Below, in pieces: positions 31,407-46,442 of a DNA stretch of 64,000 bases. A model generated the notes under the pieces. The model was not told the DNA's origin and searched no databases. It saw only the letters and a list, made by a program, of their open reading frames with translations. Made by a program: the position numbers and the translations under genes. The first letter of the stretch is position 1. Every line of letters starts with the position of its first letter. This DNA comes from Terriglobia bacterium (lineage in GTDB: Bacteria; Acidobacteriota; Terriglobia; UBA7540), in NCBI GenBank assembly GCA_035946625.1, contig DASYZE010000042.1, positions 7,065 through 71,064 on the forward strand. Direction: 5' to 3'.

Positions 31407-31832
31407 CTAAGGATAAAGCCTATAAAGCAGCCAGTAAATCACCACTCCTGTAACGGAAACATAGAGCCAGGCCGGGAACGTCCAACGGGCGATGCGCCTG
31501 TGAAGGTCGAATCGCTTCTTCCAGGCGCGATAGAGCGTGGTGAGGACCAACGGAACAATCAGCGCCGCTAATATGGTGTGTGAGCCAAGCAAGGCAAAAT
31601 AGAACGGACGAATCAAGCCCAGCCCCCTGAAGTGTGTGACCCCATGTTGAACGTGGTACCAGAGATAGCAGACAAGAAAAAGGGAGGAAGTCCCAAACGC
31701 GGATAGCATGCAGATTTTATGAGCGAGGATGCGTTTGTTCCTGACGAAAAAATAACCCAAGGTCAGCAAGACCGCGCTGGCGGCATTCAGCGAGGCGTCG
31801 ATAGCGGGAAAGTCGGAAAGTTGAAGGGACAC
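31407..31832 (-). CDS. DUF420 (CtaM-like) membrane protein
   Basis: Four TM helices with AIDASLNAASAVLLTLGYFF and HRRIARWTFPAWLYVSVTGVV, typical of DUF420. Last gene of the oxidase string. Confidence 0.75.
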   Translation of the reverse strand: MSLQLSDFPAIDASLNAASAVLLTLGYFFVRNKRILAHKICMLSAFGTSSLFLVCYLWYHVQHGVTHFRGLGLIRPFYFALLGSHTILAALIVPLVLTTLYRAWKKRFDLHRRIARWTFPAWLYVSVTGVVIYWLLYRLYP

Positions 31833-31946
31833 CCTTTGAGTTTATAGTTGAAAGTCGAAAGTGAATAGTCAAAAACAACAGCAGGTAAGCTTTTGGGGCA
31901 CCCGAATCCTTCACAGTATCTGACGCGGCGAAAATCCTGGACTGCT

Positions 31947-32216
31947 TTATCTGGGGCCTTCGCCGGCAGGTTTATCTGGTGGCTCGCTGGAGGGAGGTTT
32001 CTTGTGCCTATACTCCAATATCTGCTTCAACTCGCCCGTGTAAAACGACCAAACCACCATCAACACGAAGAGGCCGCCGATGGTGGCGCAAATCAAGCTC
32101 AGCGAAAGACCGTCCAGGGTGAGAAACTGGCCCGACACCACAAGATAGCCACACACGGCCATCGAGATCAGTCCGACGACAAGACAAAATGCCAGTAGGA
32201 GGAGACTTTCAAGCAT
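31947..32216 (-). CDS. small 2-TM membrane protein (hypothetical)
   Basis: MLESLLLLAFCLVVGLISMAVCGYLV...ICATIGGLFVLMVVWSFY plus a Pro-rich tail. Start uncertain (32216, 32270 or 32327). Confidence 0.35.
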   Translation of the reverse strand: MLESLLLLAFCLVVGLISMAVCGYLVVSGQFLTLDGLSLSLICATIGGLFVLMVVWSFYTGELKQILEYRHKKPPSSEPPDKPAGEGPR

Positions 32217-32341
32217 GGAAGTTCGTTCCTTGACCAGGGTGATAGCCTGAGGATCATGACGCTCAGCCATCGGTTGTCTAAGAGGATTTTGTTGTTTCGC
32301 CCTGGGCGATATCCGCAAATCTTTCAATTGCCTGGCGGCGC

Positions 32342-33277
32342 CTATTTTAAAACCTTATCCAGAATCATGAGGCCAAACACCAAAGGCAGATAAAAAACCG
32401 AAGCCATTAACAGGCGCCGGGCCAGCAACTTGGATCTGACCACCGAGGTCAAAACTCCGCAGTACAAAATGCTTAGTCCGAGCGCGAGTGTCCCGAAAAA
32501 ATATAACCAGCCCATTTGGCCCAGCCAGGTGGGGAGCAAGCTGACCGGCAACAGGGCCAACGAGGTCACCAGGATCTGCCGCGCGGCCTTTCGCCCTTGC
32601 GGGTCATCGAGCGGGAGCATCAAAAGACCCGCCCGCTCGTAATCCTCCCGGTACATCCAGGCGATGGAAAGAAAGTGTGGGAACTGCCAGATAAAGAGGA
32701 TGGCGTAAAGGATCCACGCTTCAAGATTCAAGGAACCGCGTGCGGCTGCCCATCCGATCAATGGTGGCATGGCGCCGGGGAAGGCGCCCACCAAAGTGCA
32801 GTAAGTGGTTTTCCGTTTGAGTGGAGTGTAAAGCAGCAGGTAGCTGGCGAGCGTGAGCATCGCCAAGCCGCTGGCCAGAAAGTTGGCAGCCCACCAGAGA
32901 TATAAACCCCCGGCAACGGAAAGAACAATCCCAAACCACAGGGCTTCTGGAGCCGAAAGCCTTCCCGAGGGCAAGGGTCGATTGGCTGTTCGCCGCATGC
33001 GGGCGTCTGACACGCGTTCAAACCATTGGTTCAGCGTCGCCGTGCCACTCGCCACCAGCAGGGTGCCGGCGAGAGTGTGAAACAGGAGCAGATAATTCAT
33101 GGCGCCGCGCCAACCCAGATAGAAACCCGCCAGCGAGCTGGCCACCACCAGTGAATTGACTTCTGGCTTGGTGAGCGTCCAATAGTCAGCGACTTTGCTG
33201 CGCCACCTGGCCACGACTGCGCGCGGCCGCGGATTCACCGCGGCTGCCACCGTATTGTCCACCACAATACTGCCCAT
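32342..33277 (-). CDS. ctaB: protoheme IX farnesyltransferase (heme O synthase)
   Basis: UbiA-family motifs (NQWFERVSDARMRRTANRPL, YREDYERAG) and 8-9 TM helices. ATG 33277 avoids overlap with ctaA. Confidence 0.9.
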   Translation of the reverse strand: MGSIVVDNTVAAAVNPRPRAVVARWRSKVADYWTLTKPEVNSLVVASSLAGFYLGWRGAMNYLLLFHTLAGTLLVASGTATLNQWFERVSDARMRRTANRPLPSGRLSAPEALWFGIVLSVAGGLYLWWAANFLASGLAMLTLASYLLLYTPLKRKTTYCTLVGAFPGAMPPLIGWAAARGSLNLEAWILYAILFIWQFPHFLSIAWMYREDYERAGLLMLPLDDPQGRKAARQILVTSLALLPVSLLPTWLGQMGWLYFFGTLALGLSILYCGVLTSVVRSKLLARRLLMASVFYLPLVFGLMILDKVLK

Positions 33278-33287
33278 TAAATTTCCT

Positions 33288-34211
33288 TCAAACCGCCACA
33301 TTCTCCCGCATTGAAGAGAGCTCGGGGGCCGAGTCAGGCACCGCCACAAAGCGATAAGTCTGATAGGTTAGGGCCAAACTTGCCGCCAGAACCAACGCGC
33401 CCACGGCCACGTGCGTGGTGGTGACCAGAACCACCGGGGGCAAAGGCTGGGGTGCATTTTGATTGGTCCAGACTTCCCAGTACGAGCCAACGCCGAGGGC
33501 TACCTGCACCACCAGAAGGCCGGTGAGGAGCCAAATCGGCCGAGTCAAGCGGCGTTCGGTTCGAAATTCGGAGAGCACGCGCACCAACATCCAAAGCACC
33601 GCGATGGTCACCAAGCCCGCGCCCACCACGTGCGGGATGATTCCAAATCCATGATGCCGGAAAGCCGCACCCACCATCAACTGAAGAAATATCAATGCGG
33701 TGGTCGCGGTGGCCAGGCGCCGCAAAGAAATCGTTGAGGTTTCTTTTACCTTGGGCTCGTCCCAACGCCAGTCCGCCTGGGTAAATAATGCGAGGCTCAC
33801 CATAATGCAGAAAAATGCCTGGGCCAGGCAGGCATGAGCCACGGAAACGTCCACGGGCAAAAAGAAAAGAACGGTAATCCCGCCCAGAATGGCCTGAGCG
33901 ATGATGGTGAGAACGGAAATCGCGCCCAGGCGCCGTACCCAGCGTCGCGGCTCGCTGCGCCACAGCCAGACCGCGAGAATCAGAGTGAAGATCACGACGG
34001 TCCCCGCCACCATGCGGTGGCCGTGCTCAAATTTAACCCCCCCCACCATGCGCGGCATGCGAAAGGTCCCAAACGAAGTCGGCCAGTCCGGAACGGAAAG
34101 GCCGGCGTCGTTGGAGGTGACCAGCGCGCCGGCGATAATCAAAATGAAAGTGGCGGCGGCAACGAACGTCGCGTAGCGGTGCAGCCATCGTTGCTGTAAG
34201 GTCTGAGCCAT
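33288..34211 (-). CDS. ctaA: heme A synthase (COX15/CtaA family)
   Basis: Eight TM helices with His pairs (FEHGHRM, AFRHHGF, TTHVAVG) as in CtaA. Confidence 0.8.
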   Translation of the reverse strand: MAQTLQQRWLHRYATFVAAATFILIIAGALVTSNDAGLSVPDWPTSFGTFRMPRMVGGVKFEHGHRMVAGTVVIFTLILAVWLWRSEPRRWVRRLGAISVLTIIAQAILGGITVLFFLPVDVSVAHACLAQAFFCIMVSLALFTQADWRWDEPKVKETSTISLRRLATATTALIFLQLMVGAAFRHHGFGIIPHVVGAGLVTIAVLWMLVRVLSEFRTERRLTRPIWLLTGLLVVQVALGVGSYWEVWTNQNAPQPLPPVVLVTTTHVAVGALVLAASLALTYQTYRFVAVPDSAPELSSMRENVAV

Positions 34212-34219
34212 TTTCGAAA

Positions 34220-34507
34220 CTATGCTCTCCAAGGCGCGGCCGCCACGTTCGGCATTTCCTCATTGGCCGGATCCTGGTGAATCCCAGATCCTTCATCGGT
34301 CCTGGTGTTAAAGCTATTCCGGCGGCGGAACGCCACCCCGAATATCAAAATAAACATCAAAAGAGTGGGAAATATCATCACCAGAACACCGGTCTTCAAA
34401 GCCTGCAACATCCCCGGAGCCTGCGTGGCGGCGTTCTGATAACAAGCAGGACACATCTGCGCGAACGCCACGCTGGGGGTGGCAAGCGCGGCAAATCCCG
34501 CTGCCAT
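34220..34507 (-). CDS. small hypothetical protein with signal-like N-terminus, CxxC and one TM helix
   Basis: MAAGFAALATPSVAFAQMCPACYQN...GVLVMIFPTLLMFILIFGVAF. The ORF-track start at 34669 would translate the repeat region. Start uncertain. Confidence 0.4.
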   Translation of the reverse strand: MAAGFAALATPSVAFAQMCPACYQNAATQAPGMLQALKTGVLVMIFPTLLMFILIFGVAFRRRNSFNTRTDEGSGIHQDPANEEMPNVAAAPWRA

Positions 34508-34524
34508 TCGAGCCGGAATTTTCC

Positions 34525-34579
34525 AAATCTGAGATCGGAAATCTGAGATTTGAAATCTCATGATCGGTTTTTGAAATCC
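34525..34579. repeat. stuttering word repeat (tctgagat / ttgaaatc) with a local palindrome
   Basis: aaatctgagatcggaaatctgagatttgaaatctcatgatcggtttttgaaatcc, which contains the near-palindrome gagatttgaaatctc. Confidence 0.7.
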
Positions 34580-34691
34580 ACCCTTCACCACTTGATGTCT
34601 CTCTCGGTTCGCCTTGCCGTTTTTAATTTTCTCACGCCCCGTTCTCAACCTTCTTAATTCATCATTCATAATTCAACCTTCATACATTTCT

Positions 34692-35006
34692 TCAATGCAC
34701 CTTCATCACCAGAATGCGCAAACTGTCGGGAAATACCACAAACAACATGCCCACCACAAAGAGCAGCGCCGGCATCAAGGTCAAAATCAGGCTTCGGCGC
34801 TCGTACCGGAGGTGCATGAAGTAGGCGATGATCAATGATGCTTTGATGAGCGAGAGGCCCATCAACAGGGTCAGCATCAGCTTCAGCTCCAGTTGCGCAT
34901 AGGCCAGGAAGACCTCCACCCCGGTGAGTCCCAGCAGCGAAAACCAGACAGTGAATGTCACCTTCTTGCTGATTTCATTGTGGGCGTGTTCCATGGTTGC
35001 GTTCAT
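34692..35006 (-). CDS. ctaF: cytochrome c oxidase subunit IV (prokaryotic COX4 family)
   Basis: 104 aa with 3 TM helices and position after subunit III. TFTVWFSLLGLTGVEVFLAY resembles COX4_pro. Confidence 0.7.
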   Translation of the reverse strand: MNATMEHAHNEISKKVTFTVWFSLLGLTGVEVFLAYAQLELKLMLTLLMGLSLIKASLIIAYFMHLRYERRSLILTLMPALLFVVGMLFVVFPDSLRILVMKVH

Positions 35007-35124
35007 TCAGTCTCAAACCTCCGATTGCAGGCGCGGTCTCTGACCGCCGTCCCCGGCGCTCCGTAAGCGCCGAATTATTCGGCGGTCCCCGCCCCGTGAA
35101 GCAGGCACCGACCGCCGGGACAGA

Positions 35125-35769
35125 TCATCCTATTCTTGCCGACAGCAAATAGACCAGGGGGAAGATGAACATCCACACCAGGTCAACGAAGTGCCAATAC
35201 AGTCCGGCCACTTCCACTACTTCATCGTTGTACTTGCCCCGCGCCGTGCCGAATGCCACCACGGCCAGATAAACGACGCCGATGGTGACGTGAGTCATGT
35301 GCAGCCCAGTCAATCCGAAAAATGTGGCGCCGAATAGCGGTGTGCCCCACGGATTCCCCCAGGGTGTCACGCCCTGGTGAAACAGTCCAAACCACTCGCG
35401 CAGGTGGAGGACGTCAAACGTCACCCCCCCCATCAGGGTGGCCACCAGCCATCCGGCCGCGCGGGAGCGAATGCCCATCTTGGCGGCGCGCACGCCCAGC
35501 ACCATGGTGACGCTGCTGGTCAGCAGGACCAGGGTCATCACGGTGGCGTTGATGACGCTGGCTGATTCAAAAGGCCTCGGCCATGCTTCCGTCGACGTGC
35601 GCACATAACTATAGGCCACCAGGAGAGCTGAGAAGGTGATGGCATCGGAAACGATGAACAACCACATTCCCAGCTTATTCGAACCGATTGCGTACGGAGA
35701 CCCGCCCCCGGACCAGATCGATTCGTGGCCGCCCTCATGGGCGGCTAGATCTTGAGCATGGCTCGACAT
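35125..35769 (-). CDS. ctaE: cytochrome c oxidase subunit III
   Basis: Heme-copper oxidase subunit III-like helices (GLHMTHVTIGVVYL, YWHFVDLVWMFIFPLVYL). Confidence 0.85.
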   Translation of the reverse strand: MSSHAQDLAAHEGGHESIWSGGGSPYAIGSNKLGMWLFIVSDAITFSALLVAYSYVRTSTEAWPRPFESASVINATVMTLVLLTSSVTMVLGVRAAKMGIRSRAAGWLVATLMGGVTFDVLHLREWFGLFHQGVTPWGNPWGTPLFGATFFGLTGLHMTHVTIGVVYLAVVAFGTARGKYNDEVVEVAGLYWHFVDLVWMFIFPLVYLLSARIG

Positions 35770-35770
35770 C

Positions 35771-36442
35771 CTATAACCTCACCGTGAGCAAGAGTAGGAG
35801 ATAAATCCAAAGTCCGTCCATAAAATGCCAGTAAAGGGCAGTCACATCCACTGCCACACGCTTTTTCAGTCCGGCAGCCAATCGCGGAGCCTGCCCCACG
35901 AGGTAGCAAAGCGCGATGACGCCACCCAGCAGGTGGAGCCCGTGCGCCGCCGTCAGCAGGTAGAAGAACGAACTGCTGGGATTGGTGGAAAGATATACGC
36001 CATGCGACGCCAGCTCGCGCCACGCCACCAGTTGACCGCCAATGAACGCCACGCCGAGGATCGACGTGACCTTGAGCCAAATCTTGAATTGACTGGCTCG
36101 GCCGGCTCCCAGGGCCCGGCGCGATATTTCGAAGGCGACGCTGCTGGCCAGCAGGATTAGAGTATTGAAATAAAGAATGCGTGGTAGCGCAATCGCGGCC
36201 CAGTCGGACGACCCGCCCTTGCGGACGATCAGCGCGCTGGTGAACGACGCGAACAACATCACAATGGCAACCAGCGCCATCCACATGCCGGTGCGATAGG
36301 TTTGTGCCGGCACACTCCAATCCCGGTAATCTCTGCCGCCATACCCTCCGTACCCTCTTCGGCCGAAACCACTCCCGTTGCCACCGGTCGAATCGCTCCC
36401 GGGGGGGGTTGTGAGCCTTGGCGGAGTTAGTACGGTGGCCAT
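35771..36442 (-). CDS. second cytochrome c oxidase subunit III-family protein
   Basis: AAHGLHLLGGVIALCYL and LYWHFMDGLWIYLLLLL, with a Gly/Tyr/Arg-rich N-terminus. ATG 36442 preferred. Confidence 0.8.
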   Translation of the reverse strand: MATVLTPPRLTTPPGSDSTGGNGSGFGRRGYGGYGGRDYRDWSVPAQTYRTGMWMALVAIVMLFASFTSALIVRKGGSSDWAAIALPRILYFNTLILLASSVAFEISRRALGAGRASQFKIWLKVTSILGVAFIGGQLVAWRELASHGVYLSTNPSSSFFYLLTAAHGLHLLGGVIALCYLVGQAPRLAAGLKKRVAVDVTALYWHFMDGLWIYLLLLLTVRL

Positions 36443-36505
36443 TTCCAAACCCATCAGAAAGCGGACGAGGGAATCAGTAAACCCCTCCAAAAATTTATTT
36501 CAACC

Positions 36506-36533
36506 TTTCTGACTCCTGTCTTCTGACTCCTTC
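36506..36533. repeat. direct word repeat in the ctaD|ctaE spacer
   Basis: tttctgactcctgtcttctgactccttc. Its reverse complement contains ggagtcagaag, the same 11-mer repeated at 59446-59478. Confidence 0.75.
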
Positions 36534-36534
36534 T

Positions 36535-38316
36535 TTATTCCGCCGGCACTATTTCCGGCGAATCCTGCATGATGAAATCCTTCTCGGCGCCGGGTACGCC
36601 AAATTCATAAGCTCCGTGATAGACCACCGGATGTTTTCCGGCAAAATTGTCAAAGGGAGGCGGCGATGGAATTGTCCACTCCAGCGTCGTCGCCTCCCAC
36701 GGATTCTCGGAAGCCTTGCCACCTTTGAACATGCTCCAGAAAAGATTGACCACGAAAATCAGTTGCGCGCCCGCGGTGATGAAGGCCGCATAGGACATGA
36801 ACATGTGCAGGTCAATAATATGCGGCGTATTCAGGAAATCGACTTCCGTGAACTGGGAGTACCTTCGTATGTTGCCCGCCACGCCCAGGAAATGCATGGG
36901 CATGAAGATGCAATAGACACCCACAAAGGTAATCCAGAAATGAATTTTGCCCAGGGTTTCGTTCAGCATGCGGCCAAACATCTTGGGGAACCAGAAAAAC
37001 GTTCCGGCGAACATCCCGAAGATGGCGGCCACGCCCATCACCAGGTGGAAATGGCCGACCACGAAATAGGTGGCGTGCAAAGGAACGTCCACCGGGGGCT
37101 GGGCGAGGAACAATCCACTGAGTCCGCCGCTCACGAAAAGCGAAACGAACCCGATGGAAAACAGCATGGCGGAAGTCATTCGCAGTCTGCCACCCCATAG
37201 CGTTCCCAACCAGTTGAAAGTCTTGATCGCACTCGGCACGCCGATCGCCATGGTCATCATCGAAAAGGCAAAGCCGGAATAGGGGCTCATCCCACTCAGG
37301 AACATGTGGTGACCCCAAACCATAAAGCCGAGGAATCCGATGGCCATCATGGCGTAGACCATGGCCTTGTAACCGAAGATGGGCTTGCGCGAAAAGGTTG
37401 AGATGATGTGCGAGGTCATTCCCATCCCAGGCAGGATGGCGATGTAGACCTCCGGATGGCCGAAAAACCAGAACAAGTGTTGCCAGAGGAGTGGCGACCC
37501 GCCGCTGTGTGGAATGATTTGATCGCTGACCACAAGGCCGGCGGGGATAAAGAAACTGGTGCCGCCCAACCGGTCAAGGAGCAACAAGACGCCGGCGGCC
37601 AGAAGAACGGCGAAAGAAAGAAGCATCAGGACGGCGGTGATCAGCCACGCCCATGCGGTGAGAGGGAGACGGCTCAAGGTCAATCCGCGAGCGCGAAGAT
37701 CCAGGGTGGTGGCGATGAAATTCAGGCTGCCCAAAAGCGAGCCGAGGCAAAAAATAGCAATTGAAACAATCCAGAGGGTCTGGCCCATGCCCTCTCCGGG
37801 CCCGGCGGCGGTGCCGATGGCGCTTAAAGGCGGATACGCCGTCCACCCCGACAAAGGCGGGCCATCGGTGATAAAGAAAGTGCTGAGGAGAACCACAAAG
37901 CCTACAAAAGTCGTCCAGAACGAAAGCATGTTCAGTGTGGGGAAGGCCATATCCTCCGCGCCAAGCTGAATGGGCAATATATAGTTTCCAAACCCGCTTT
38001 GGGGCGCCGTGGTGAGCACAAAGAAAACCATCAGAGTTCCATGCATGGTCATGAGAGAAAGATAATATTCCGGGGTCATCACGCCGCCAGGGGCGCCGTT
38101 AGGAGAGAGCTTTTCGAGCAGCGGCATGTGGGCGCCAGGCCACACCATGTGCCAGCGCATCAAAACGGACAGGATGATGCCCACAAAAACTGACGCCAAC
38201 GCCAGGAAGTAATACTGTTTCCCGATCACCTTGTGATCGAGACTGAAGATGTACTTCCGGATAAAACCGGTGGGCGCCGTGTGATGGTGAACGGCCTCCG
38301 CGTGCGCATCTGCCAT
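36535..38316 (-). CDS. ctaD: cytochrome c oxidase subunit I (A-type heme-copper oxidase)
   Basis: 593 aa with 12+ TM helices. WFFGHPEVYI, the HH pair (VWGHHMF), and VVGHFHLVM His ligands. Confidence 0.95.
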   Translation of the reverse strand: MADAHAEAVHHHTAPTGFIRKYIFSLDHKVIGKQYYFLALASVFVGIILSVLMRWHMVWPGAHMPLLEKLSPNGAPGGVMTPEYYLSLMTMHGTLMVFFVLTTAPQSGFGNYILPIQLGAEDMAFPTLNMLSFWTTFVGFVVLLSTFFITDGPPLSGWTAYPPLSAIGTAAGPGEGMGQTLWIVSIAIFCLGSLLGSLNFIATTLDLRARGLTLSRLPLTAWAWLITAVLMLLSFAVLLAAGVLLLLDRLGGTSFFIPAGLVVSDQIIPHSGGSPLLWQHLFWFFGHPEVYIAILPGMGMTSHIISTFSRKPIFGYKAMVYAMMAIGFLGFMVWGHHMFLSGMSPYSGFAFSMMTMAIGVPSAIKTFNWLGTLWGGRLRMTSAMLFSIGFVSLFVSGGLSGLFLAQPPVDVPLHATYFVVGHFHLVMGVAAIFGMFAGTFFWFPKMFGRMLNETLGKIHFWITFVGVYCIFMPMHFLGVAGNIRRYSQFTEVDFLNTPHIIDLHMFMSYAAFITAGAQLIFVVNLFWSMFKGGKASENPWEATTLEWTIPSPPPFDNFAGKHPVVYHGAYEFGVPGAEKDFIMQDSPEIVPAE

Positions 38317-38331
38317 CTGTTATCTCCCTTT

Positions 38332-38455: not shown

Positions 38456-39292
38456 TCACTGCGACGCCGCCTGGTCTTGCAGCCACTTCTCATAATCTGC
38501 TTCGGTCATGACCTTCAAAAATGCCCGCATCTTGTAATGTCCTAGCCCGCAAAGCTGCGTGCAGACGATTTCGTAAGTTCCGTTGGGCAATTTTGGGCTG
38601 CTGCTGTGATTGAGGGCGTCCGGGGTGGTGGTGAAATGGATGGGAATCTCGAGTCCCGGAACCAGGTCCTGGTGCACCCTCAGCTCGCGAACATAGAACG
38701 AATGGCCCACGTCCTTGGAGCGCAGGATCAGCTCGATTTCCCTGTTCACGGGAATGCCCAGCGTGGCGGTCACAATGTCGTCCTTGGCAACGGCGTCGTG
38801 ATCCCGGTCGAGACCAAAGAAATTTCCCGTCGCGTCGTTGATCAGGTTGACGTGGGTGGGACCAAATTGTCCGTCGGGGCCGGGATAGCGAAAGGACCAG
38901 GCGAATTGTTGTCCCTGCGCCTGAATCCTCAGCGCGCCCGGCGCCGCGCCGGTGAAATGCATCGCCGCCCAGATGCGGTAGCCCATCAAATTCAGGCCAA
39001 TAAACAAAATCGCCGCTGCTGTGGTCCACATCGATTCGAGCTTGTTGTTCCCGTGCGAGTAGATGACCTTGCGGCCGTCGCCCCGATCGCGGTACTTGTA
39101 AACGAACCAGGCCAGGCCGAGTTGAGCGAGGACGAAAATGATGCCGCAAAGGGTGAGCGTCAATATGAACTGCTGGTCCACCGCAGCACCGTGGGTTGAA
39201 ATGGAGGGAGGAAACCACCAGATGTGCGCCGCGAATATATATACCGTTACGACCGTGATCAGCGCCACTACCAGCGCGAAGGCCAGCGCCAT
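38456..39292 (-). CDS. ctaC: cytochrome c oxidase subunit II (CuA, no fused cytochrome c domain)
   Basis: Two N-terminal TM helices and a CuA site (H...CTQLCGLGHYKM). The protein ends about 25 aa after the CuA motif and has no CxxCH. Confidence 0.9.
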   Translation of the reverse strand: MALAFALVVALITVVTVYIFAAHIWWFPPSISTHGAAVDQQFILTLTLCGIIFVLAQLGLAWFVYKYRDRGDGRKVIYSHGNNKLESMWTTAAAILFIGLNLMGYRIWAAMHFTGAAPGALRIQAQGQQFAWSFRYPGPDGQFGPTHVNLINDATGNFFGLDRDHDAVAKDDIVTATLGIPVNREIELILRSKDVGHSFYVRELRVHQDLVPGLEIPIHFTTTPDALNHSSSPKLPNGTYEIVCTQLCGLGHYKMRAFLKVMTEADYEKWLQDQAASQ

Positions 39293-39306
39293 AAGTTCTC
39301 CTCTTC

Positions 39307-39471
39307 AAAAGTAGACAGTAAACAGTAGTCTGTAGACAGGGTTACGGAATTGTTTTTATAGCTCAAGACTCAGGGCTGATTTCCAAGCACACTCCACGGC
39401 GCGAATCTCATCGATCCGGTCTTGTTTGTTGCTCTTCCCAGTCTACTGTATACGGTCTTCTGTCTACTTTT
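39307..39471. repeat. inverted word-repeats bracketing the cupredoxin|ctaC spacer
   Basis: aaaagtagacagtaaacagtagtctgtagacag (39307-39339) versus cagtctactgtatacggtcttctgtctactttt (39439-39471). The terminal 12 nt are perfectly complementary. Confidence 0.8.
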
Positions 39472-39475
39472 CTAT

Positions 39476-40258
39476 TCAGCCCTTGAAACTAAAGTCCACC
39501 GTCTTTGATTCCTTGGGTGCCACGGTTACTTTTTGTTCTTGCGTCCCAAAAGTGGCTGACCATGCCCCGAGGGTATAGTCGCCCGGAGGAAGCCCTTTAA
39601 TCGTGAACGTGCCATCGCTCCCTGAAACTGCGAAGAGAGGATTCTTGGTCACTCCGATGTAAGCCCTCATCCAGGGGTGTTGGTTGCACTTTACCGGGAT
39701 CATGATTTCCGAGCGGGCAAACGTCTTATCCAGCGCCGGTGCGCCGGGGGCCTGGGACTCATTCCACTCGCGATTGTCCTTGGGCTGCGGGTGGATATTG
39801 TGCGTGGTGGCATCACTGCTGACGATGTGCAGCGTCTGGTCCACTTGCACCCCCACCACGTGGGGTTGGTACATGCAGCCATTCTGGTCCAGGGTCACGG
39901 CCTCGGTAGGCGTGGGCCAGGCGTATTTGTCCGCCCCATCTTTCACATAAACGAAAACGTTGGGCAGCGTTCCATTTTCATTTACTTCGCCGTCTTCCAC
40001 GTGGACAGGGGACTTGTGCTTGGCCACGCACACCGGGTCCTGATCCATATGAATCACGGCCAGCTTGGGCTTGGCGCCGGTAAAAGTAATTTTACCCGTC
40101 ACCGTACCCACCGTGGCTTGATCGACAGGCGTACCTGCAGGCGCGGTGGCGGTCGCCGCCGGCTGCTCGGTGGTTTCCGGCGCCTTCTCGCTGCTACAGC
40201 CAAACATTAAAATCGTTGTGGCGATAATCGAGAACCCTATCATCAATTTCTTGTTCAT
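39476..40258 (-). CDS. lipoprotein with an amicyanin-like type-1 copper (cupredoxin) domain fused to a CarboxypepD_reg-like beta-sandwich
   Basis: Lipobox LMFGC. THNIH-(34 aa)-CNQHPWM parallels amicyanin PHNVH-(35 aa)-CTPHPFM (His/Cys/His/Met ligands). The C-terminus GTFTIKGLPPGDYTL is CarboxypepD_reg-like. Confidence 0.7.
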   Translation of the reverse strand: MNKKLMIGFSIIATTILMFGCSSEKAPETTEQPAATATAPAGTPVDQATVGTVTGKITFTGAKPKLAVIHMDQDPVCVAKHKSPVHVEDGEVNENGTLPNVFVYVKDGADKYAWPTPTEAVTLDQNGCMYQPHVVGVQVDQTLHIVSSDATTHNIHPQPKDNREWNESQAPGAPALDKTFARSEIMIPVKCNQHPWMRAYIGVTKNPLFAVSGSDGTFTIKGLPPGDYTLGAWSATFGTQEQKVTVAPKESKTVDFSFKG

Positions 40259-40309: not shown

Positions 40310-43300
40310 TTAATGAGCTTTTACCAGCATTCCGATCAGCGTTGGCCGGGCATGGGCATTCGGTCCTTCCTGTTTCTCGGTCGTCTGCTTCATGCTGTTC
40401 GCACTGAGTCCGGTGAGTTTGCGTTGTTCTTCCGGCGTAATCTCAAACATATAACGAACCAGCAGGTCGGCCTGATCGCCCGTATATCCGTTGAAGATGG
40501 GGGGCGTGGGGCCGGCAAAAACATTGTGCCCATCCTGGGTCTTAAAGAGACCGGAGGGCATGGCGGTGCCCGGGCTGATCATGGCCGGGTCGAGAATCCA
40601 ATGCTTGGTCCAATCCGGCTTCAACCGCTCCGGCGCCAGCAGGAAATTGGGCGCGGTGGCAAATTTATCGTGGGTCGCATCGCCCGTGGCGTGGCACTTC
40701 AGGCACGGAGCCGCCCGGCTGGTGAACAGCGCTCGCGCCATTTCCAATTCCTTGGGAGTCAATGGATCGAGCCGGGGCGAAATGTATGGCATAGGTTGGC
40801 TGGACATGGCTTGGAAGAATCTCACCAGTTTGCGCACTTCGATGGGTGAGAAGTAGAAAGTCGGCATCCTGACTTTCAGGTACGGACGCACGCCGTCGCG
40901 ATCCGTGTCCGTGTCGCTCATGGCGGGATTGGAAAGGAACTTCGCCAGCCATTCCGGATTTACCCGCGCCCCTTCGGTGAGCAATTTGGGCGGAAGCTGA
41001 TCCTTCCATTCCGGCGTTTGATAGCGCGGGATATCCATCAGCACCGAATCCTGGCCCACTTTGAATTGGTGGCAGCCCTCGCAATTGTATTTCTTGACCA
41101 GCCACCATCCGTCTTGAACGTCCCGGCGCTGATCGGCGGGCAGATACCAATAGCGTTGGGGAATTTCCGAAGTCACGCTGCCCATCAGGAAAGTGGTGAG
41201 TTCGGAAATCTGCTTTTGGTCGGCGGGCGCCAGGTCGGGCATGCCTTCCGTCACTTTGGAGCTGACGGGCTCGAAGAAGTCGGGCATTTTCAGTTCTTCT
41301 GCTTCCGTCTTAATCATGCCCTTGTCATACATTTCCGGCTTGGCCAGCTTGTGTTCGAAAAAGCCCTTGTGGCTGTACCAATCTTCGTTCTTGGCTTCGC
41401 GAATGTAGAGGGCAAAGTCAATCTGCTCCAGAGGCTTGCTGCCTTCAGCGGTAAGCTCCGTCCCGATTCTCCCTTCGTCTTCCATACCCTCAATTTCGTG
41501 GCAGCCCGCGCAACCATAAAACCGGATTTTCTTTTTGCCCTCTTCCTTCAACTTCGGATTGTTCATGAAGGGCGCCGCGGCGTAGGTCGCATCCGGGCGC
41601 TTGAGAGTCTCGAGGTAACTGGCGATGTCCCGCGCTTCATCCCAGGAGAGTCGCAGGTTGGGCATCACCGTCATCTGCTCCACCACCATCTCGTGGCCGT
41701 CGTTCGGACACTTGGTGTGGTTTAAGTCAAACGTGTAAGGCGGCAGGCCGTGCTTCTTGTAATCTTCATCCGTAATATCTCTTTTCTCAAAGGGGCAATA
41801 AGGGCGGGTGCGCTCGCGCGGGTTATGAATCCAGCGCACCAGGAAATCGTAATTGTCCTTTTCACCCACCCGGGTCAAGTTGGCGGCGAACCAGCCGCCC
41901 ACCTGGTTGGCGCCTTCGCCCACCGAGTGGCAGCCCATGCAGCCGCGCGTCTCAAAGCTTTCCTTGCCCTTCACCGGATCGCCCGGCGCCTGGTGAGACA
42001 GGGTGGTCTGAATCGCCGTCTGCCAAAGGTAAGCGGAAATATCCTCAATGTCGTCATCGTCCAAGCGGAATCGGGGCATCTTGGTGGTGGGCCGCCAGGC
42101 GTGAGGATTCTTCAGCCACACCGGAATCCATTCCGGCCGAATCTTTACCCGGACTTCCTTCAAGTCCGGGCCGACTTTCTTGCGGCCCATCATCAGGTAC
42201 TTGGCTTTCACTTCGAGCTGGTCCAACTGCATGGAAACCTTGCTGGAGGCGACCCGCAGCGCGTCCGCATCGGTGTAATCCTGGCGCGCGGTCGCGTTGT
42301 CGGCAGCGTGGTCGCCCGCGTCGATATCCCGCTGCGCGTTGCGCAGATCATCGGCGCGTTCCGTTTCCATCTGCAAAATTTGCTGCTGATTGGCGACGAG
42401 ATCTTCGGGCTCCGAATCGTATCCCTGGAAGCGATGGCAGCCGATGCAGCCTTTCCACTGGAGAAGCCGCTTGCCCTCGGTCAACTCCGGCGCGTGGTCC
42501 ACGACCATGTCGGACGCGTGGCACTGCTGGCAGCCGGCCTGCATGTTGGCTTTGTGGTAGAGCGGCCAAAGCCAGTGCTCGTATTCTCCGTGGCCCATCG
42601 CCACGCTATCCACTTGCATCCCGTTGCCGTTATGGCACGGCGTGCAGCCATATTTATCCGGATCGTGAATTTGAAGCAACTCCATGTCCGGATGGCTGGT
42701 GAACGCCGCGGACATGGGATCCTTATCGCCGCCCATATTCTGGCGGGTCAGCAGCACCGGCTCGCGAATCCCCAGGTGGCACGATTCGCAACGGTCCACA
42801 ACTCCGGCGTCCGGGATGTTGATCTGCTTAATCTCGATGGCCATCGTCTCGGCCTTATTCAGCAATCCCCGCAACTGCTCGGCGCTGAGGCCATTCAAAT
42901 GGTCGTGGAGATAGGCCCTAAGTTTTTTCGCCGCCTCGCCCTGAGGCTTCAGGATGTCACCTTCCTGCTGCTGCAGTTTCCCTTTTTCGGTCTGTAGGTT
43001 GGCGAACTCGTTTTCCAGCTCCTCGAAGGTGAACGTTTTCCCGGCGAAGGAAGGCCCGTTGAGCGTGAATGGGCCCTTCTTGTACATATCCAGATTGTGT
43101 TCCAGCGACGTTCTGCCCGGCCCGTCGGGGGTATGCTCGGCCACATAGATCATGGACCCGACCCGGGCCCGCTCGTTGGTCAATGTCCCGAGAACCGCGG
43201 CAATTTTGCCGTCAATGGCGGCGGTCTGCTCGTGGATTTGCGTCAGTTGTGGCGCAGCCGCGTCATGCGCGTCCTTCACTTGTTTTTCCAGCGCCTGGTA

Positions 43301-43534
43301 GTCGGGAGAATTCTCGATGGCCTTTTCAGCTTTTTCCTGCCGGGGAATCTCTTTTTTCAGGAGGGACGCGTAAAGCGTGGCAAATCGACGCTCGTAACCC
43401 TTCCACGGCCTCAGGCCGAAGAACTCGTCGTAGAGCGACCAGCTCAAACTGAAGATCAGGAGGAACGCCGCGATCACAAAATAGCCGGCCAGCGAACGGC
43501 CAACAATAGGGTCTTTCTCGGGGGCGTCAGGCAA
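40310..43534 (-). CDS. membrane-anchored octaheme c-type cytochrome (1074 aa)
   Basis: N-terminal TM helix plus a coiled region. Eight CxxCH: CESCH, CTPCH, CQQCH, CIGCH, CMGCH, CAGCH, CEGCH, CLKCH. Several class-I-like modules end in MPxF/L...YL. Confidence 0.85.
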   Translation of the reverse strand: MPDAPEKDPIVGRSLAGYFVIAAFLLIFSLSWSLYDEFFGLRPWKGYERRFATLYASLLKKEIPRQEKAEKAIENSPDYQALEKQVKDAHDAAAPQLTQIHEQTAAIDGKIAAVLGTLTNERARVGSMIYVAEHTPDGPGRTSLEHNLDMYKKGPFTLNGPSFAGKTFTFEELENEFANLQTEKGKLQQQEGDILKPQGEAAKKLRAYLHDHLNGLSAEQLRGLLNKAETMAIEIKQINIPDAGVVDRCESCHLGIREPVLLTRQNMGGDKDPMSAAFTSHPDMELLQIHDPDKYGCTPCHNGNGMQVDSVAMGHGEYEHWLWPLYHKANMQAGCQQCHASDMVVDHAPELTEGKRLLQWKGCIGCHRFQGYDSEPEDLVANQQQILQMETERADDLRNAQRDIDAGDHAADNATARQDYTDADALRVASSKVSMQLDQLEVKAKYLMMGRKKVGPDLKEVRVKIRPEWIPVWLKNPHAWRPTTKMPRFRLDDDDIEDISAYLWQTAIQTTLSHQAPGDPVKGKESFETRGCMGCHSVGEGANQVGGWFAANLTRVGEKDNYDFLVRWIHNPRERTRPYCPFEKRDITDEDYKKHGLPPYTFDLNHTKCPNDGHEMVVEQMTVMPNLRLSWDEARDIASYLETLKRPDATYAAAPFMNNPKLKEEGKKKIRFYGCAGCHEIEGMEDEGRIGTELTAEGSKPLEQIDFALYIREAKNEDWYSHKGFFEHKLAKPEMYDKGMIKTEAEELKMPDFFEPVSSKVTEGMPDLAPADQKQISELTTFLMGSVTSEIPQRYWYLPADQRRDVQDGWWLVKKYNCEGCHQFKVGQDSVLMDIPRYQTPEWKDQLPPKLLTEGARVNPEWLAKFLSNPAMSDTDTDRDGVRPYLKVRMPTFYFSPIEVRKLVRFFQAMSSQPMPYISPRLDPLTPKELEMARALFTSRAAPCLKCHATGDATHDKFATAPNFLLAPERLKPDWTKHWILDPAMISPGTAMPSGLFKTQDGHNVFAGPTPPIFNGYTGDQADLLVRYMFEITPEEQRKLTGLSANSMKQTTEKQEGPNAHARPTLIGMLVKAH

Positions 43535-43567
43535 AGCACTGCTCCTCAGGCGGATAAATTTCGGATG

Positions 43568-44509
43568 CTAAACGTTAAACCACCACGTGACCCAGACGTA
43601 CTTGATGCGAAACACCAGCCGCAAAATCATCTTGACGGGCAACAACAGCATGGTGATCAAGAAAAACTGCAAGGTGAGGTACTGGATCAAGCTCATCCTC
43701 TGGTAAATCTTTCGGCTGAATTCCGTCAGGGTAATGACCCGGTGAAATAAGTAGCCGGCGGCGCCAAAATACAGGCCCATCACGATGGCGCCAAACACCG
43801 CCTTGCCCGCCATGGTGGTGATGCCAAAGATGTCGGGCAAATCGCGATTGACTTCATACACCACCCGGCTCGGATCCCAAGTCTGTCCCGGCCAGAACCA
43901 CATCCACCCCGGGCCTCGAATAAACGTCCCCACCAGAACCATCAGGACCCAGAGAAAAAGGAAGCCAAAACAGAAGGTGGCGATGGAAAACCGGCGCTGC
44001 TTCCAAGTGTAGTACCCCGAGCCCAATGGATTGGTATCCACATACGGGATAATCATCAGCCCGAGAACGATCAAGGTGGGCATCACCACGCCCGCGATCC
44101 AGGGATCGAAATAAACCAGCATCTCCTGAAGTCCCAGGAAATACCACGGCGCCTTGGCGGGGTTCATGGTCAGGTTGGGATTCGCCAGTTCTTCCAGGGG
44201 AGCGTTGAGCGTAATCGACCAGACAAACAAAATAATGGTGACTATTATGGCCGCCAGAAATTCCACCCGCATCAGGTACGGCCAGGTCTGGAGTTCCTTG
44301 GCCCAGCCCGACTTCCACGGATAATTTTTCCGGTGGGCGGTTTTGGCCAGTTGGGGATCGCTCTCGAGCTGCGCAATCAGGCGGTCATTGGCAAAAGCCT
44401 GGCGGAAAGCCATCCAGCAGAAAAATGGGATTAGGAAAATGAGCGCGACAATCGGAATATTATCCGGCGCCGAGCTGATTTCCCAAAGTTGGTGCCAGTC
44501 AAAACCCAT
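43568..44509 (-). CDS. cytochrome b C-terminal half (b6f subunit IV-like), extended
   Basis: PAKAPWYFLGLQEML corresponds to the PEWY/Qo motif of the cytochrome b C-terminal domain or subunit IV. Extra TM helices at both ends. Confidence 0.8.
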   Translation of the reverse strand: MGFDWHQLWEISSAPDNIPIVALIFLIPFFCWMAFRQAFANDRLIAQLESDPQLAKTAHRKNYPWKSGWAKELQTWPYLMRVEFLAAIIVTIILFVWSITLNAPLEELANPNLTMNPAKAPWYFLGLQEMLVYFDPWIAGVVMPTLIVLGLMIIPYVDTNPLGSGYYTWKQRRFSIATFCFGFLFLWVLMVLVGTFIRGPGWMWFWPGQTWDPSRVVYEVNRDLPDIFGITTMAGKAVFGAIVMGLYFGAAGYLFHRVITLTEFSRKIYQRMSLIQYLTLQFFLITMLLLPVKMILRLVFRIKYVWVTWWFNV

Positions 44510-44530
44510 ACCATGACCTCAAGTCTCGAA

Positions 44531-44643
44531 AGTAGGTGGTAGGTGGAATGTGGTATGTAGGGATTCCAAACCCATGTGGTCCACAGAACCCAAGTACAAC
44601 CTTCCGCGGCCTTCCCTGCCTACCACCTGCCACCTACCCCTAC
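44531..44643. repeat. inverted word-repeats bracketing the cyt b|subunit IV spacer
   Basis: agtaggtggtaggtggaatgtggtatgtaggg (44531-44562) versus ccctgcctaccacctgccacctacccctac (44614-44643). Shares aggtggtaggt and ggaatgtgg with 25654-25680. Confidence 0.8.
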
Positions 44644-45547
44644 AATTTCCTCTCCGGCTTGATCTCCGACTCCAGCATCACGGGCGCCGGGCCGGAAATT
44701 CCACCGTCTTTTCGCACCCGCCAGAAATGCACGCCCATAAAAGTTCCGGCAATCAGCGGGATGGCAATGCAGTGCCAAATGTAAGCGCGCAGCAGCGCAT
44801 TGGCATCCACAATCGACCCGCCCAGGAGGGCAAAGCGGACGTCATTATAAGGAGTCATCCCCAACTGCCGCCCCAGCGGTCCCTGGTAGCCCAAGCCGGG
44901 CGTATTCTGCGCCATGGTGGTTCCCACCGTCACCGCCCAGAATCCCAGTTGGTCGTCGGGCAGAAGATAGCCGGTGAAGGAGAGCAGCAGGGTCAGCACC
45001 AACAGGACCACGCCCACGCACCAATTGAATTCGCGCGGCTTCTTGTAAGAGCCGGTGAGGAAGACGCGGAACATGTGCAGCCACACGGCGATGACCATCA
45101 GGTGGGCAGCCCAGCGGTGCATGTTGCGCAAAAGCTTTCCGAACGGGACGTCGGCCATCAGGTAAATGATGTCGTTGTAAGCCTGCCCCTTGGTGGGGTG
45201 GTAGTAGAACATCAGCAGGACGCCAGTGATGGTGAGAACGATGAAAAGATAAAATGTGATGCCGCCCATGCCCCAAGTGTAGTTGTAACGGACTGCGTCC
45301 CGATTCACCTTGGCGGGGTGGAGATGCAGGAAGACGTTGGAGAGGACTCCTAGGGCCCGGCTGCGCTCGCTCTCGTCGTGCTTGACGCGAAAAATTGATT
45401 TATAAAGTTGGGTCTTTTCGGGCTTCTTGAGCGCTTCTGCTTCTTCGATGACCCTCTCCTTCAAGGCCTTCGTGTCACTGAGAAGCTTCTCCACAAAACC
45501 GGGCGACTCTTTCTTTTCGGGAACCTCGGGGCTTGGACGATCAGCCA
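44640..45547 (-). CDS. cytochrome b N-terminal half (b6-like, four-helix di-heme core)
   Basis: His pairs in RNMHRWAAHLMVIAVWLHMF and AYIWHCIAIPL...GVHFWRV. The heme ci Cys position reads WGMGG (no Cys). ATG 45547 preferred. Confidence 0.9.
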
Positions 45548-45563
45548 TGAATCTCCTCAAGAC

Positions 45564-45736
45564 TAATGACGAGAGATGAGTGACGAGCATGGACCGGAAG
45601 CTTTTGGTGTTCGCCGATCAATGCGTTACCTTCACACGTTTGCTTCTCGAAATTACTGACTTAAAAAGCCTGGCTCTGTTGGGTAAAGGTGTTTTCTTAT
45701 TTCCTGCCCGTCACTTGTCACTCTTCACTGGTCACT
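45564..45736. repeat. inverted word-repeats bracketing the Rieske|cyt b spacer
   Basis: aatgacgagagatgagtgacgag (45564-45586) versus cgtcacttgtcactcttcactggtcactg (45708-45736). Confidence 0.75.
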
Positions 45737-45743
45737 GCTTTTC

Positions 45744-46442
45744 CTACACCGGGATGAACGCACCCGGATCGTTGAATTCGTCCCGGCCGCCTTTGCTGCG
45801 ATCCCACATAAAAAGTATGCTTTTGTCCGCGATGATCTGGCCCTGGGCGTTCAACTCAACGTGCGCGCGGTCCATGGGCCGAGGGGCCGGCCCTTCAAAA
45901 TTGATTCCTTCCGGGGTATAGCCGCTGCCGTGGCAGGGGCACTTGAATTTGTTTTCAGCCGGCTTCCAGTCCGGCGTGCAGCCGAGGTGCGTGCACTTGG
46001 CGAAAATGGCAAAAATCTGAGTGGGTTCCCTCACCACGTAAATGCGGCACTCTTGCTTGAACCGGTCGCTGACTCCGAGCACGTAATCGGACGGGTAGCC
46101 AAGATTGCAAATGTTGCTGGGCTCAAAGAGGGCGCGCGGGAAAAAGAACCGGAGGAACATCAGGAAATTCGCGGCCAGGAATGCCGCCATGCACGCCCAG
46201 GTCAGGCGACGGCGCAATTGATTGGGGTCAGGCTCTGTGGTTTCCTTCGCCGGGGCGGCTGCGGGCGCCGCAGGTTTGGGTGCCGGGGGAGTGGTGGCTT
46301 TCGCTGCCGCTGCTGGAGGAGCCGCCGGCTTGGCGGTTGCAGGTGCGGCGGATTTTTCCACCGGCTTCGCCGCCCCAGTCCCCGCTGCTGCAGCGGGGAG
46401 TTTTGAAGGAACTGGGGCGCTCGGATCTTCAGGATTCGACAT
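45744..46442 (-). CDS. Rieske [2Fe-2S] protein of the bc-type complex
   Basis: CTHLGCTPDW...CPCHGSGY cluster boxes. RRR-containing leader plus TM helix, preceded by an Ala/Pro/Lys-rich extension of about 75 aa. Confidence 0.9.
   Translation of the reverse strand: MSNPEDPSAPVPSKLPAAAAGTGAAKPVEKSAAPATAKPAAPPAAAAKATTPPAPKPAAPAAAPAKETTEPDPNQLRRRLTWACMAAFLAANFLMFLRFFFPRALFEPSNICNLGYPSDYVLGVSDRFKQECRIYVVREPTQIFAIFAKCTHLGCTPDWKPAENKFKCPCHGSGYTPEGINFEGPAPRPMDRAHVELNAQGQIIADKSILFMWDRSKGGRDEFNDPGAFIPV

Follow-up and report, generated by a model that had tools for sequence, protein, structure and literature searches.

A conserved gene string in Terriglobia places a split-cytochrome b Rieske complex, an octaheme cytochrome c, and a predicted cupredoxin beside genes for an aa3-type oxidase

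Introduction

Operons that combine genes for a Rieske protein, a split cytochrome b, and an octaheme cytochrome c have been noted in Nitrospina gracilis, "Ca. Kuenenia stuttgartiensis," and "Ca. Methylomirabilis oxyfera" (Lücker et al. 2013, PMC3578206), and the anammox Rieske/cytochrome b (R/b) complexes combine NAD(P) oxidoreductase subunits with c subunits that have six or eight hemes and long helices (PMC12954380). Acidobacteria carry superoperons of other compositions, bc1-A1 caa3 and ACIII-A2 caa3 (ACIII, alternative complex III), for which possible supercomplexes have been suggested (Trojan et al. 2021, PMC8407424). Here, we compare with these systems a 64,000-nucleotide stretch of DNA from a soil acidobacterium of the Terriglobia (GenBank assembly GCA_035946625.1, contig DASYZE010000042.1, positions 7,065 to 71,064), hereafter called the window. 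Its list of open reading frames (ORFs) contains a string of 15 genes at 31407-46442, all on the minus strand, that encode in 5′-to-3′ order a Rieske protein, a b6-like cytochrome b, a subunit-IV-like protein, an octaheme cytochrome c, a cupredoxin, CtaC, CtaD, two subunit III proteins, CtaF, a small CxxC protein, CtaA, CtaB, a small protein with two transmembrane (TM) helices, and a DUF420 protein. Profile matches in Pfam and NCBIfam confirmed 12 of the 15 genes. We conclude that partial precedents exist, both as Rieske/split-b/octaheme operons and as acidobacterial superoperons of other composition, and that the present combination is a conserved variant that is biochemically unstudied.

In our view, the genes of the string likely specify the high-potential end of a chain for aerobic respiration, in which electrons would pass from menaquinol to O2 along membrane-tethered carriers. 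The original prediction, made from the letters of the window, had named the genes from the Rieske protein to DUF420 in this order, and those identities were borne out by hidden Markov models (HMMs), cofactor motifs, and a fold prediction for the cupredoxin, with two small proteins matching no family.

Comparison with described systems

The Nitrospina/anammox-type operon resembles the string in that genes for a Rieske protein, a b6-like protein, a subunit-IV-like protein, and a multiheme cytochrome c that replaces cytochrome c1 or f stand in a row, and a large c subunit with long helices has been reported for anammox Kustd1485 (PMC12954380). Unlike that type, the string here continues with cupredoxin, aa3 oxidase, and heme A genes, the octahemes of the two being compared by description only. 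Moreover, and in contrast to anammox R/b-2 and R/b-3, no NAD(P) oxidoreductase or HAO-like domain was found in any gene at 31407-46442.

Like the superoperons described by Trojan et al., the string links complex III and complex IV genes in an acidobacterium and includes an A1-type oxidase (PMC8407424). The bc1 type of those authors has the order ctaC-ctaD-ctaE-ctaF-petC-petA-petB-ctaG, with an unsplit petB, the oxidase genes upstream, and an oxidase classed as caa3 type (PMC8407424), whereas the window string opens with the bc genes, has a split cytochrome b, an octaheme cytochrome c, and a cupredoxin, and encodes a subunit II without heme c. Actinobacterial bcc-aa3 (PDB 6adq and 7q21) shares with the string an aa3 oxidase without a c domain, a membrane-bound multiheme c donor, and linkage of the qcr and cta genes, but it has a diheme QcrC, an unsplit QcrB, and no cupredoxin. 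The actinobacterial models NF050120 and NF050122 scored 100.6 and 28.5 bits in the string (cut-offs of 500 and 200). For the actinobacterial enzyme, physical association has been demonstrated, whereas the evidence for the window string is gene linkage.

Two further systems resemble parts of the string. The haloarchaeal halocyanin-Rieske/split cytochrome b cluster also has a split cytochrome b that lacks the heme ci Cys, extra helices, an S-Y Rieske protein, and a type-1 copper gene (Baymann et al. 2012, PMC3509893); it differs in being archaeal, with no multiheme c described and no linked oxidase genes (PMC3509893). Geobacter ExtP and ExtQ, of selenite and tellurite reduction (NF040969 and NF040970), were the best-scoring named HMMs for the two cytochrome b halves, but the scores were below cut-off (263.6 versus 290 bits for ExtP, the match of the b6-like protein, and 45.1 versus 150 bits for ExtQ), and the Ext genes have another gene context. 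In the literature searched, which did not include the main review of bc-complex evolution, no description of the present gene combination was found, and Hausmann 2018 and Eichorst 2018 contained nothing on this cluster.

Conservation of the gene order

Twenty related loci, here numbered L001 to L020, were examined; one of them (L014) was too short, holding only a gene fragment, and 19 had enough flank for comparison. A scan of a genome collection with a single protein gave 12 close loci, and wider breadth was obtained through a representative search and contig look-ups. The bc/octaheme module adjoined oxidase-related genes in 19 of the 19 loci, from at least three phyla (Acidobacteriota, Planctomycetota, and Chlorobiota). 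Oxidase structural genes stood beside the bc module in 13 of these, and the remaining 6 had only ctaA, ctaB, and DUF420 there. A synteny comparison across phyla had been proposed in the original prediction as a check, and the recurrence of the arrangement in at least three of them sustains its claim that the genes for the quinol oxidizer, the carriers, the oxidase, and the cofactors belong together.

The full order was found in eight acidobacterial loci (L001 to L007 and L013). Farther away, a Planctomycetota metagenome-assembled genome (MAG; L015) and L018 had the order Rieske-b-subunit IV-octaheme-cupredoxin-COX2-COX1-CtaA-CtaB-COX3-...-SCO1-DUF420, the gene at the Rieske position of L018 giving no Pfam match; a complete Chlorobiota genome (L016) kept the order as far as COX1; and L020 added a diheme cytochrome c to the string. 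Outer flanking genes differed in every lineage, whereas the order persisted down to about 25 to 40% octaheme identity in other phyla. Motifs common to the loci where the region was recovered were (Y/F)TWGMGG, P(A/S)KAPWYFL, CPCHGSG(Y/F), and the C-x2-H-x-W-M copper loop, with PAKAPWYFL not found in L003. We conclude that functional coupling of the bc module with the oxidase genes is well supported by this comparison of gene order.

One locus carried an unexpected label: the L010 contig (DATKNR010000020.1) is named "Patescibacteria group bacterium" but is a typical acidobacterial type-B locus. With 50 to 76% identity to acidobacterial proteins, the label is probably a binning or labeling error.

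The Rieske/split cytochrome b module

The bc module and the two candidate carriers that follow it are encoded as listed here. ORF starts are the longest possible, and several true starts are probably further in.
45744..46442, minus strand: Rieske [2Fe-2S] subunit (PF00355, 31.9 bits; PetC-like NCBIfam matches below cut-off)
44640..45590, minus strand: cytochrome b6-like N-terminal half (PF00033, 137 bits; probable true start about 45548)
43568..44509, minus strand: subunit-IV-like (petD-like) C-terminal half of cytochrome b (PF00032, 24.4 bits)
40310..43534, minus strand: octaheme cytochrome c, 1,074 amino acids (eight CxxCH; Pfam Cytochrom_C, Cytochrome_C7, and Paired_CXXCH_1)
39476..40258, minus strand: lipoprotein with a predicted type-1-copper cupredoxin domain (only Pfam match, a C-terminal CarboxypepD_reg beta-sandwich)

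The Rieske protein starts with an Ala/Pro-rich tail and has one TM helix, a twin-arginine motif (RRR), and the cluster boxes CTHLGC and CPCHGSGY. An S-Y in the Rieske box marks a high-potential cluster, a rule quoted in Kao and Hunte (PMC4122944), and by this signature the cluster is predicted to be of high potential. The tail, residues 1 to 75, is an Ala/Pro/Lys-rich low-complexity extension ahead of the twin-arginine motif; in the homologues from Planctomycetota and Chlorobiota (139 to 141 amino acids), this extension is reduced or missing.

Cytochrome b is encoded in two parts. Four TM helices and four heme-ligating His residues are present in the b6-like protein, which matched cytochrome b6 best in PDB (1q90_B, E value of 8.7e-43), with both His pairs aligned. 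Its WGMGG aligned with b6 YCIGG such that Gly107 lay opposite Cys35, and thus the heme ci Cys is absent. The subunit-IV-like protein has 313 amino acids and, by hydropathy, about six predicted TM helices (one extra N-terminal and two extra C-terminal), versus three in b6f subunit IV. The Qo motif is APWY, which stood opposite PEWY in a petD alignment and lies within PAKAPWYFL in the window. Cytochrome b6f and the b6c complexes of Bacillus and heliobacteria share with the window the point at which cytochrome b is split and all four heme-ligand His residues, but the window has Gly for the ci Cys, APWY for PEWY or PDWY, no cytochrome f, and no fusion of subunit IV with a cytochrome c. Canonical bc1, in contrast, has an unsplit eight-TM cytochrome b and a monoheme cytochrome c1, where the window has two cytochrome b genes and an octaheme. 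No Cytochrom_C1 or Apocytochr_F Pfam match was obtained among the string genes. The composition is therefore unlike that of either bc1 or b6f, as had been proposed from the sequence. Alternative complex III was considered and rejected, as Pfam and NCBIfam searches of the string returned no ActB/ActC-type genes.

APWY on a split cytochrome b and a high-potential Rieske signature, here CPCHGSGY, are traits of the APWY clade of Kao and Hunte. A putative heme ci motif, WCMGG, is present in most of the APWY-clade members that carry a CxGG motif (Kao and Hunte, PMC4122944); WGMGG was found instead in the window and in 13 of 13 loci where the region was recovered. As of 2014, no member of the clade had been characterized, and reverse operation was suggested (Kao and Hunte, PMC4122944). 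We conclude that, as judged by motifs, the bc complex has the defining traits of the APWY clade.

The octaheme cytochrome c

The octaheme protein begins with an N-terminal TM helix followed by about 200 residues of long helices. Next come three closely spaced CxxCH motifs with conserved distal His candidates and then five class-I-like modules, each with a conserved Met-Pro. Invariant in 27 homologues were the eight CxxCH motifs, H281, H290, H315, and H320 near the first three hemes, and M486, M624, M750, M890, and M992, which form Met-Pro pairs spaced like those of class-I domains. From these motifs, we infer three bis-His and five His/Met hemes.

The family comprises 755 clusters at 50% identity (E value of ≤1e-30), and its named full-length members come from Terriglobia/Acidobacteriota, Planctomycetota, and Chlorobiota. 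Five octahemes examined from other lineages had eight CxxCH motifs with the same spacing. A sequence search of PDB returned no significant relative, such that no solved structure resembles this subunit by that search. An AlphaFold2 model had a predicted local distance difference test (pLDDT) score of 54.8 and a predicted template modeling score of 0.29 and was confident only at residues 9 to 230 and 376 to 449.

The cupredoxin lipoprotein

No Pfam copper-binding model matched the lipoprotein at 39476-40258, and a PDB sequence search with its profile gave nothing significant; one match to 7q21_L (E value of 0.025) was dismissed, as it covers the lipoprotein signal region only. An AlphaFold2 model built with 24 homologues had a pLDDT of 81.6, and Foldseek aligned it over about 90 residues with amicyanin, plastocyanin, pseudoazurin, and CuA domains (probability of 1.00). 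Consistent with the modeled fold, a ligand pattern of H153/H156...C191-x2-H194-x2-M197 was invariant in the 24 homologues, and the ligand set is kept in other phyla. The family consensus of the lipobox is LAGC. A homologue stands at the same position in Planctomycetota (28% identity, E value of 3e-20), and others were found in Chlorobiota and further loci; homologues in JGI carry the name "plastocyanin." We conclude that the lipoprotein is a predicted type-1 copper protein, with either H153 or H156 as the His ligand.

A second invariant quartet of Cys and His residues (C77, H81, C128, and H133) lies outside the type-1 copper loop and is recognizable in the Planctomycetota homologue. The quartet might bind a second metal or form a disulfide.

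The aa3 oxidase, heme A synthesis, and assembly genes

The rest of the string consists of the following genes.
38456..39292, minus strand: oxidase subunit II, CtaC (COX2; PF00116; TIGR02866, 122 bits, below cut-off)
36535..38316, minus strand: oxidase subunit I, CtaD (COX1), A1 type by motif (PF00115, 472 bits; GHPEVY)
35771..36490, minus strand: first short subunit III paralogue (PF00510, 49 bits; CtaE/CyoC/QoxC-like)
35125..35769, minus strand: second short subunit III paralogue, 1 nucleotide after the first (PF00510, 55.9 bits)
34692..35006, minus strand: prokaryotic oxidase subunit IV, CtaF-like (COX4_pro; PF03626, 54.4 bits)
34220..34669, minus strand: small CxxC protein (signal-like segment, C-P-x-C-Y motif, one TM helix, RRRNSF)
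33288..34232, minus strand: heme A synthase of the CtaA/Cox15 family (PF02628, 80 bits; eight TM helices)
32342..33349, minus strand: heme O synthase, CtaB/CyoE (TIGR01473, 277 bits, above the cut-off of 210; PF01040; true start probably about 33277)
31947..32327, minus strand: small 2-TM protein (conserved core starts at MLES)
31407..31832, minus strand: DUF420 protein of the CtaM family (PF04238, 145.6 bits; four TM helices as in CtaM, oxidase linked)

CtaC has the CuA motif CTQLCGLGHYKM and two TM helices but no CxxCH or heme c domain, and its PDB matches were to subunit II of caa3 and aa3 oxidases. A subunit II with CuA and without heme c needs an outside electron donor. The three subunit II proteins examined from other lineages (L015 to L017) likewise had CuA and no heme c domain. 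In CtaD, GHPEVY contains the D-channel Glu, and the best PDB match was the Paracoccus aa3 oxidase (1ar1_A, E value of 1.3e-127). We conclude that, as judged by its motifs (the Glu of GHPEV, CuA in subunit II, and no heme c) and with ctaA and ctaB adjacent, the oxidase is of the A1 aa3 type.

The first subunit III paralogue matched the five-TM C-terminal part of COX3, and the tandem pair is kept in L001, L003 to L007, and L013. Two subunit III homologues, CoxO and CoxP, also follow subunits II and I in the CoxMNOP-type aa3 oxidases of Bradyrhizobium and Pseudomonas KF707 (PMC5492768), but CoxM of KF707 carries two c hemes, and that type has no bc or cupredoxin linkage (PMC5492768). Pfam and NCBIfam gave no family match for the small CxxC protein, the core of which is conserved at the same position in L001, L004, L005, and L006, and none for the small 2-TM protein, which is kept in L001 and L004 to L006. 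DUF420 ends the string here and in L001, L004 to L006, L008 to L010, L015, L018, and L019. In Staphylococcus and Bacillus, CtaM is described as an assembly factor without which aa3 oxidase is not active (Hammer 2016 and von Wachenfeldt 2021, as cited in PMC8239418).

Proposed electron path and its alternatives

The gene content suggests the following path. The b6-type Rieske/cytochrome b complex, with its split cytochrome b, APWY motif, and missing ci Cys, would oxidize menaquinol at Qo. The Rieske cluster would then reduce the membrane-anchored octaheme, which would stand in for cytochrome c1 or f, and the terminal His/Met hemes would pass electrons to CuA of the A1-type aa3 oxidase, either directly or by way of the lipid-anchored cupredoxin. 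From CuA, electrons would continue to heme a, to heme a3-CuB, and to O2. CtaB, CtaA, and the CtaM-like DUF420 protein would supply heme O and heme A and aid loading of the oxidase. Menaquinone is the quinone generally known from Acidobacteria, and we infer the quinol substrate on that ground.

Both candidate donors to CuA are membrane anchored, the octaheme by its TM helix and the cupredoxin by its lipobox. Conserved adjacency, a subunit II without heme c, and tethered carriers together support a membrane-tethered chain from menaquinol to O2. Expression of a similar cluster points the same way. In the metatranscriptome of the Terriglobia MAG CO124, a cluster annotated as Rieske, b6, petD, and multiheme "petC" was up in oxic versus anoxic conditions (PMC10564751, Suppl. 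Data 3), with log2 fold changes of 5.2 for Rieske, 1.2 for b6, 3.7 for petD, and 4.3 for "petC," three of the four being significant (PMC10564751, Suppl. Data 3). The multiheme "petC" of CO124 has the same Pfam domains as the window octaheme, to which it is likened by annotation only. By this analogy, oxic induction in CO124 would lend independent support to an aerobic role.

Several observations weigh against a simple aerobic chain with a dedicated oxidase. Three of the hemes look bis-His, usually a sign of low potential, and fit poorly with a plain high-potential path from Rieske to CuA, while the octaheme model is too poor for a heme wire to be followed. In CO124, the one A-type oxidase listed lies with ACIII on another contig (PMC10564751), which goes against exclusive pairing, and complexes of the APWY type have been proposed to run in reverse (Kao and Hunte, PMC4122944). 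Among the related loci, the oxidase and cupredoxin genes of L017 are divergent from the bc genes; L008 to L012 and L019 have only ctaA, ctaB, and DUF420, with or without SCO1, beside the bc module; and the string of L013 tolerates two insertions, an insertion sequence (IS) element with a DDE transposase after the octaheme gene and ahead of the cupredoxin gene, and a glyoxalase gene between COX2 and COX1. The two inserts of L013 lie at 13350-14720 and 17124-17519 of that locus. As six loci lack ctaCDEF beside the bc module, the module is not bound to one particular oxidase locus.

One alternative goes further than the aerobic chain itself and holds that the proteins form a single bc-aa3 supercomplex, obligate and stable like that of Actinobacteria, in which the octaheme and the cupredoxin would be built-in bridges and no carrier would be free. 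Adjacency kept across at least three phyla, an oxidase without its own heme c domain, and two membrane-tethered carriers are in keeping with such an assembly, as are the long N-terminal helices of the octaheme, which are reminiscent of helices described as wrapping around the anammox Rieske/b complex (PMC12954380). The six loci that have the bc-octaheme module without oxidase structural genes, the pairing of the CO124 A-type oxidase with ACIII, and the divergent and interrupted arrangements speak the other way, and physical association is not deducible from gene order. We conclude that a supercomplex is plausible from the gene comparison, that its strict obligacy and the idea of one fixed unit are argued against by divergent, interrupted, and oxidase-less relatives, and that the strong version as a whole is rather doubtful.

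A second alternative is that the bc-octaheme-cupredoxin module serves mainly something other than forward quinol oxidation for O2, namely, reverse flow or other acceptors, with the oxidase as a parallel downhill branch. Electrons would then move from a high-potential periplasmic donor to the quinone pool as in iron and nitrite oxidizers, or from the low-potential hemes to periplasmic or extracellular acceptors. APWY and a high-potential Rieske protein are the very traits tied to reverse operation by Kao and Hunte (PMC4122944); for Nitrospina, Kuenenia, and Methylomirabilis, which have related operons, electron flow of a reverse or unusual kind has been discussed (PMC3578206, PMC12954380); a cupredoxin with an aa3 oxidase recalls the rus operon of Acidithiobacillus (PMC8239418); and a gene for a seven-heme tetratricopeptide repeat (TPR) protein lies nearby. 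Nevertheless, the string contains no gene for an outer-membrane or substrate-oxidizing enzyme and, unlike the anammox complexes, none for an NAD(P) oxidoreductase subunit; its conserved neighbors are oxidase and heme A genes. Soil Acidobacteria are known mainly as aerobic heterotrophs, and the carriers of the string are widespread soil Acidobacteria. Moreover, the like-annotated module of CO124 was induced by O2 in a MAG from a heterotrophic bioreactor (PMC10564751). We consider this alternative improbable and prefer the forward, aerobic chain.

That independent respiratory operons came to lie side by side by chance, their grouping being without functional meaning, is very improbable: the same-strand run does extend for 28 kb into unrelated housekeeping genes, and several spacers exceed 100 nucleotides, but the order is conserved to about 25 to 40% octaheme identity in other phyla while the flanks differ in each lineage.

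The evidence suggests a second, widespread type of Rieske/b complex with genetic ties, in at least three phyla, to aa3 oxidase and to the synthesis of heme A. More tentatively, and with more doubt than confidence, the locus might represent a further architecture of bacterial complex III-IV assemblies, the third after actinobacterial bcc-aa3 and ACIII-aa3 and one that spans several phyla; in it, a lipid-anchored blue-copper protein would hard-wire aa3 to a ci-less APWY b6 complex that has an octaheme subunit and a split cytochrome b of 10 TM helices. If so, forward aerobic quinol oxidation would be the first physiological role clearly assigned to the APWY clade, contrary to the published proposal of reverse flow. 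Acidobacteriota rank among the most abundant bacteria of soil, and their respiration bears on models of soil carbon turnover. In the literature searched, acidobacterial complex III is described as "bc1" or ACIII, and one metatranscriptome table lists a Rieske/b6/petD/multiheme cluster of like composition without comment. The cluster bears on how a Qo site works without an acidic residue, on the need for eight hemes, and on the replacement of cytochrome c by a copper protein between complexes III and IV; its carriers likely include cultivable Acidobacteria and Planctomycetes.

Boundaries and transcriptional organization

The original prediction had treated the string as a single-strand unit. 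All of its genes are indeed on the minus strand, but strand failed as a boundary: the codirectional run extends from 19792 to 47555 (about 28 kb) and includes comEC and genes for a tRNA methyltransferase, CoaX, BirA, ValS, and a response regulator downstream, as well as a fluoride-riboswitch/crcB/DUF190 unit upstream. As the same-strand run reaches into housekeeping genes, strand alone cannot delimit the unit. We conclude that the respiratory block is delimited by function and by conserved gene order.

Two features of the noncoding sequence bear on transcription.
46512..46541, minus strand: candidate sigma-70-like promoter, TTGACA-18-TAGATT (10 of 12 consensus matches, about 70 nucleotides 5′ of the Rieske start)
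39293..39475, minus strand: cupredoxin-ctaC spacer, with three octamers CTGTCTAC/GTAGACAG in inverted arrangement

The promoter candidate sits in the 375-nucleotide spacer between the DUF190 and Rieske genes, 3′ of a GC hairpin (46627-46648) that may terminate the crcB/DUF190 unit. Within the string, spacers of 118 to 183 nucleotides precede the genes for cytochrome b, subunit IV, CtaC, CtaD, and CtaF, and no terminator-like site was found in the internal spacers. Two of the internal spacers are unusually structured (fold z-scores of about −2.5 and about −2.8). One is the cupredoxin-ctaC spacer (z = −2.53), which holds three of the four copies of CTGTCTAC/GTAGACAG in the window, versus 0.45 expected; its possible roles are those of an operator, an intercistronic RNA stem, or a region with an internal promoter serving the oxidase genes. 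RNAalifold on six relatives gave no conserved consensus structure for this spacer and thus did not support an RNA element beyond the local repeat. GTAGAC-like repeats are visible at the same spacer in L001, L002, and L006. The other is the spacer between the second subunit III gene and ctaF (35007-35124, minus strand), which is GC rich, with a minimum free energy of −60.5 kcal/mol and z = −2.77, and is not followed by a U-tract.

Long, structured, and repeat-bearing spacers make internal promoters or processing sites possible. Together with the divergent, interrupted, and oxidase-less relatives described above, the spacers tell against the earlier view that everything is encoded as one unit. 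The window sequence was present as contigs in eight soil-metagenome runs (flagged as probable DNA) and in no RNA run. We conclude that the string is probably a superoperon of two or three transcription units, namely, bc-octaheme-cupredoxin, oxidase, and cofactor/assembly genes.

Flanking genes and minor observations

Within the string of L001, a UbiE-like methyltransferase gene (21418-22311 of that locus) separates DUF420 from the small 2-TM gene, and a gap of similar size exists at this place in L004. Downstream in the window, a response regulator receiver protein (29983-31287, minus strand) with an Ala/Pro/Glu-rich tail of about 300 residues and no output domain is encoded 119 nucleotides 3′ of DUF420. 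No terminator-like site was found in the gap between the two, and the response regulator keeps its position 3′ of DUF420 in L001 and L004.

Upstream of the string, a fluoride riboswitch (RF01734, 46.7 bits; 47613-47679) is followed on the minus strand by crcB (47184-47555) and the DUF190 gene (46818-47174). A 227-amino-acid ORF at 46909-47592, first read as the upstream neighbor, was rejected as a spurious frame that overlaps crcB and DUF190. About 90 nucleotides past the riboswitch, on the opposite strand and directed away from the crcB unit, lies the gene for the TPR protein mentioned above (47768-49372, plus strand), which has 534 amino acids, seven CxxCH motifs, C-terminal TPR repeats, and DmsE/GSU2203-like matches below cut-off. 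Elsewhere in the window, a cobalamin riboswitch (RF00174, 92 bits) stands directly 5′ of a gene for a TonB-dependent receptor with an N-terminal CarboxypepD_reg domain (59046-61753, plus strand).

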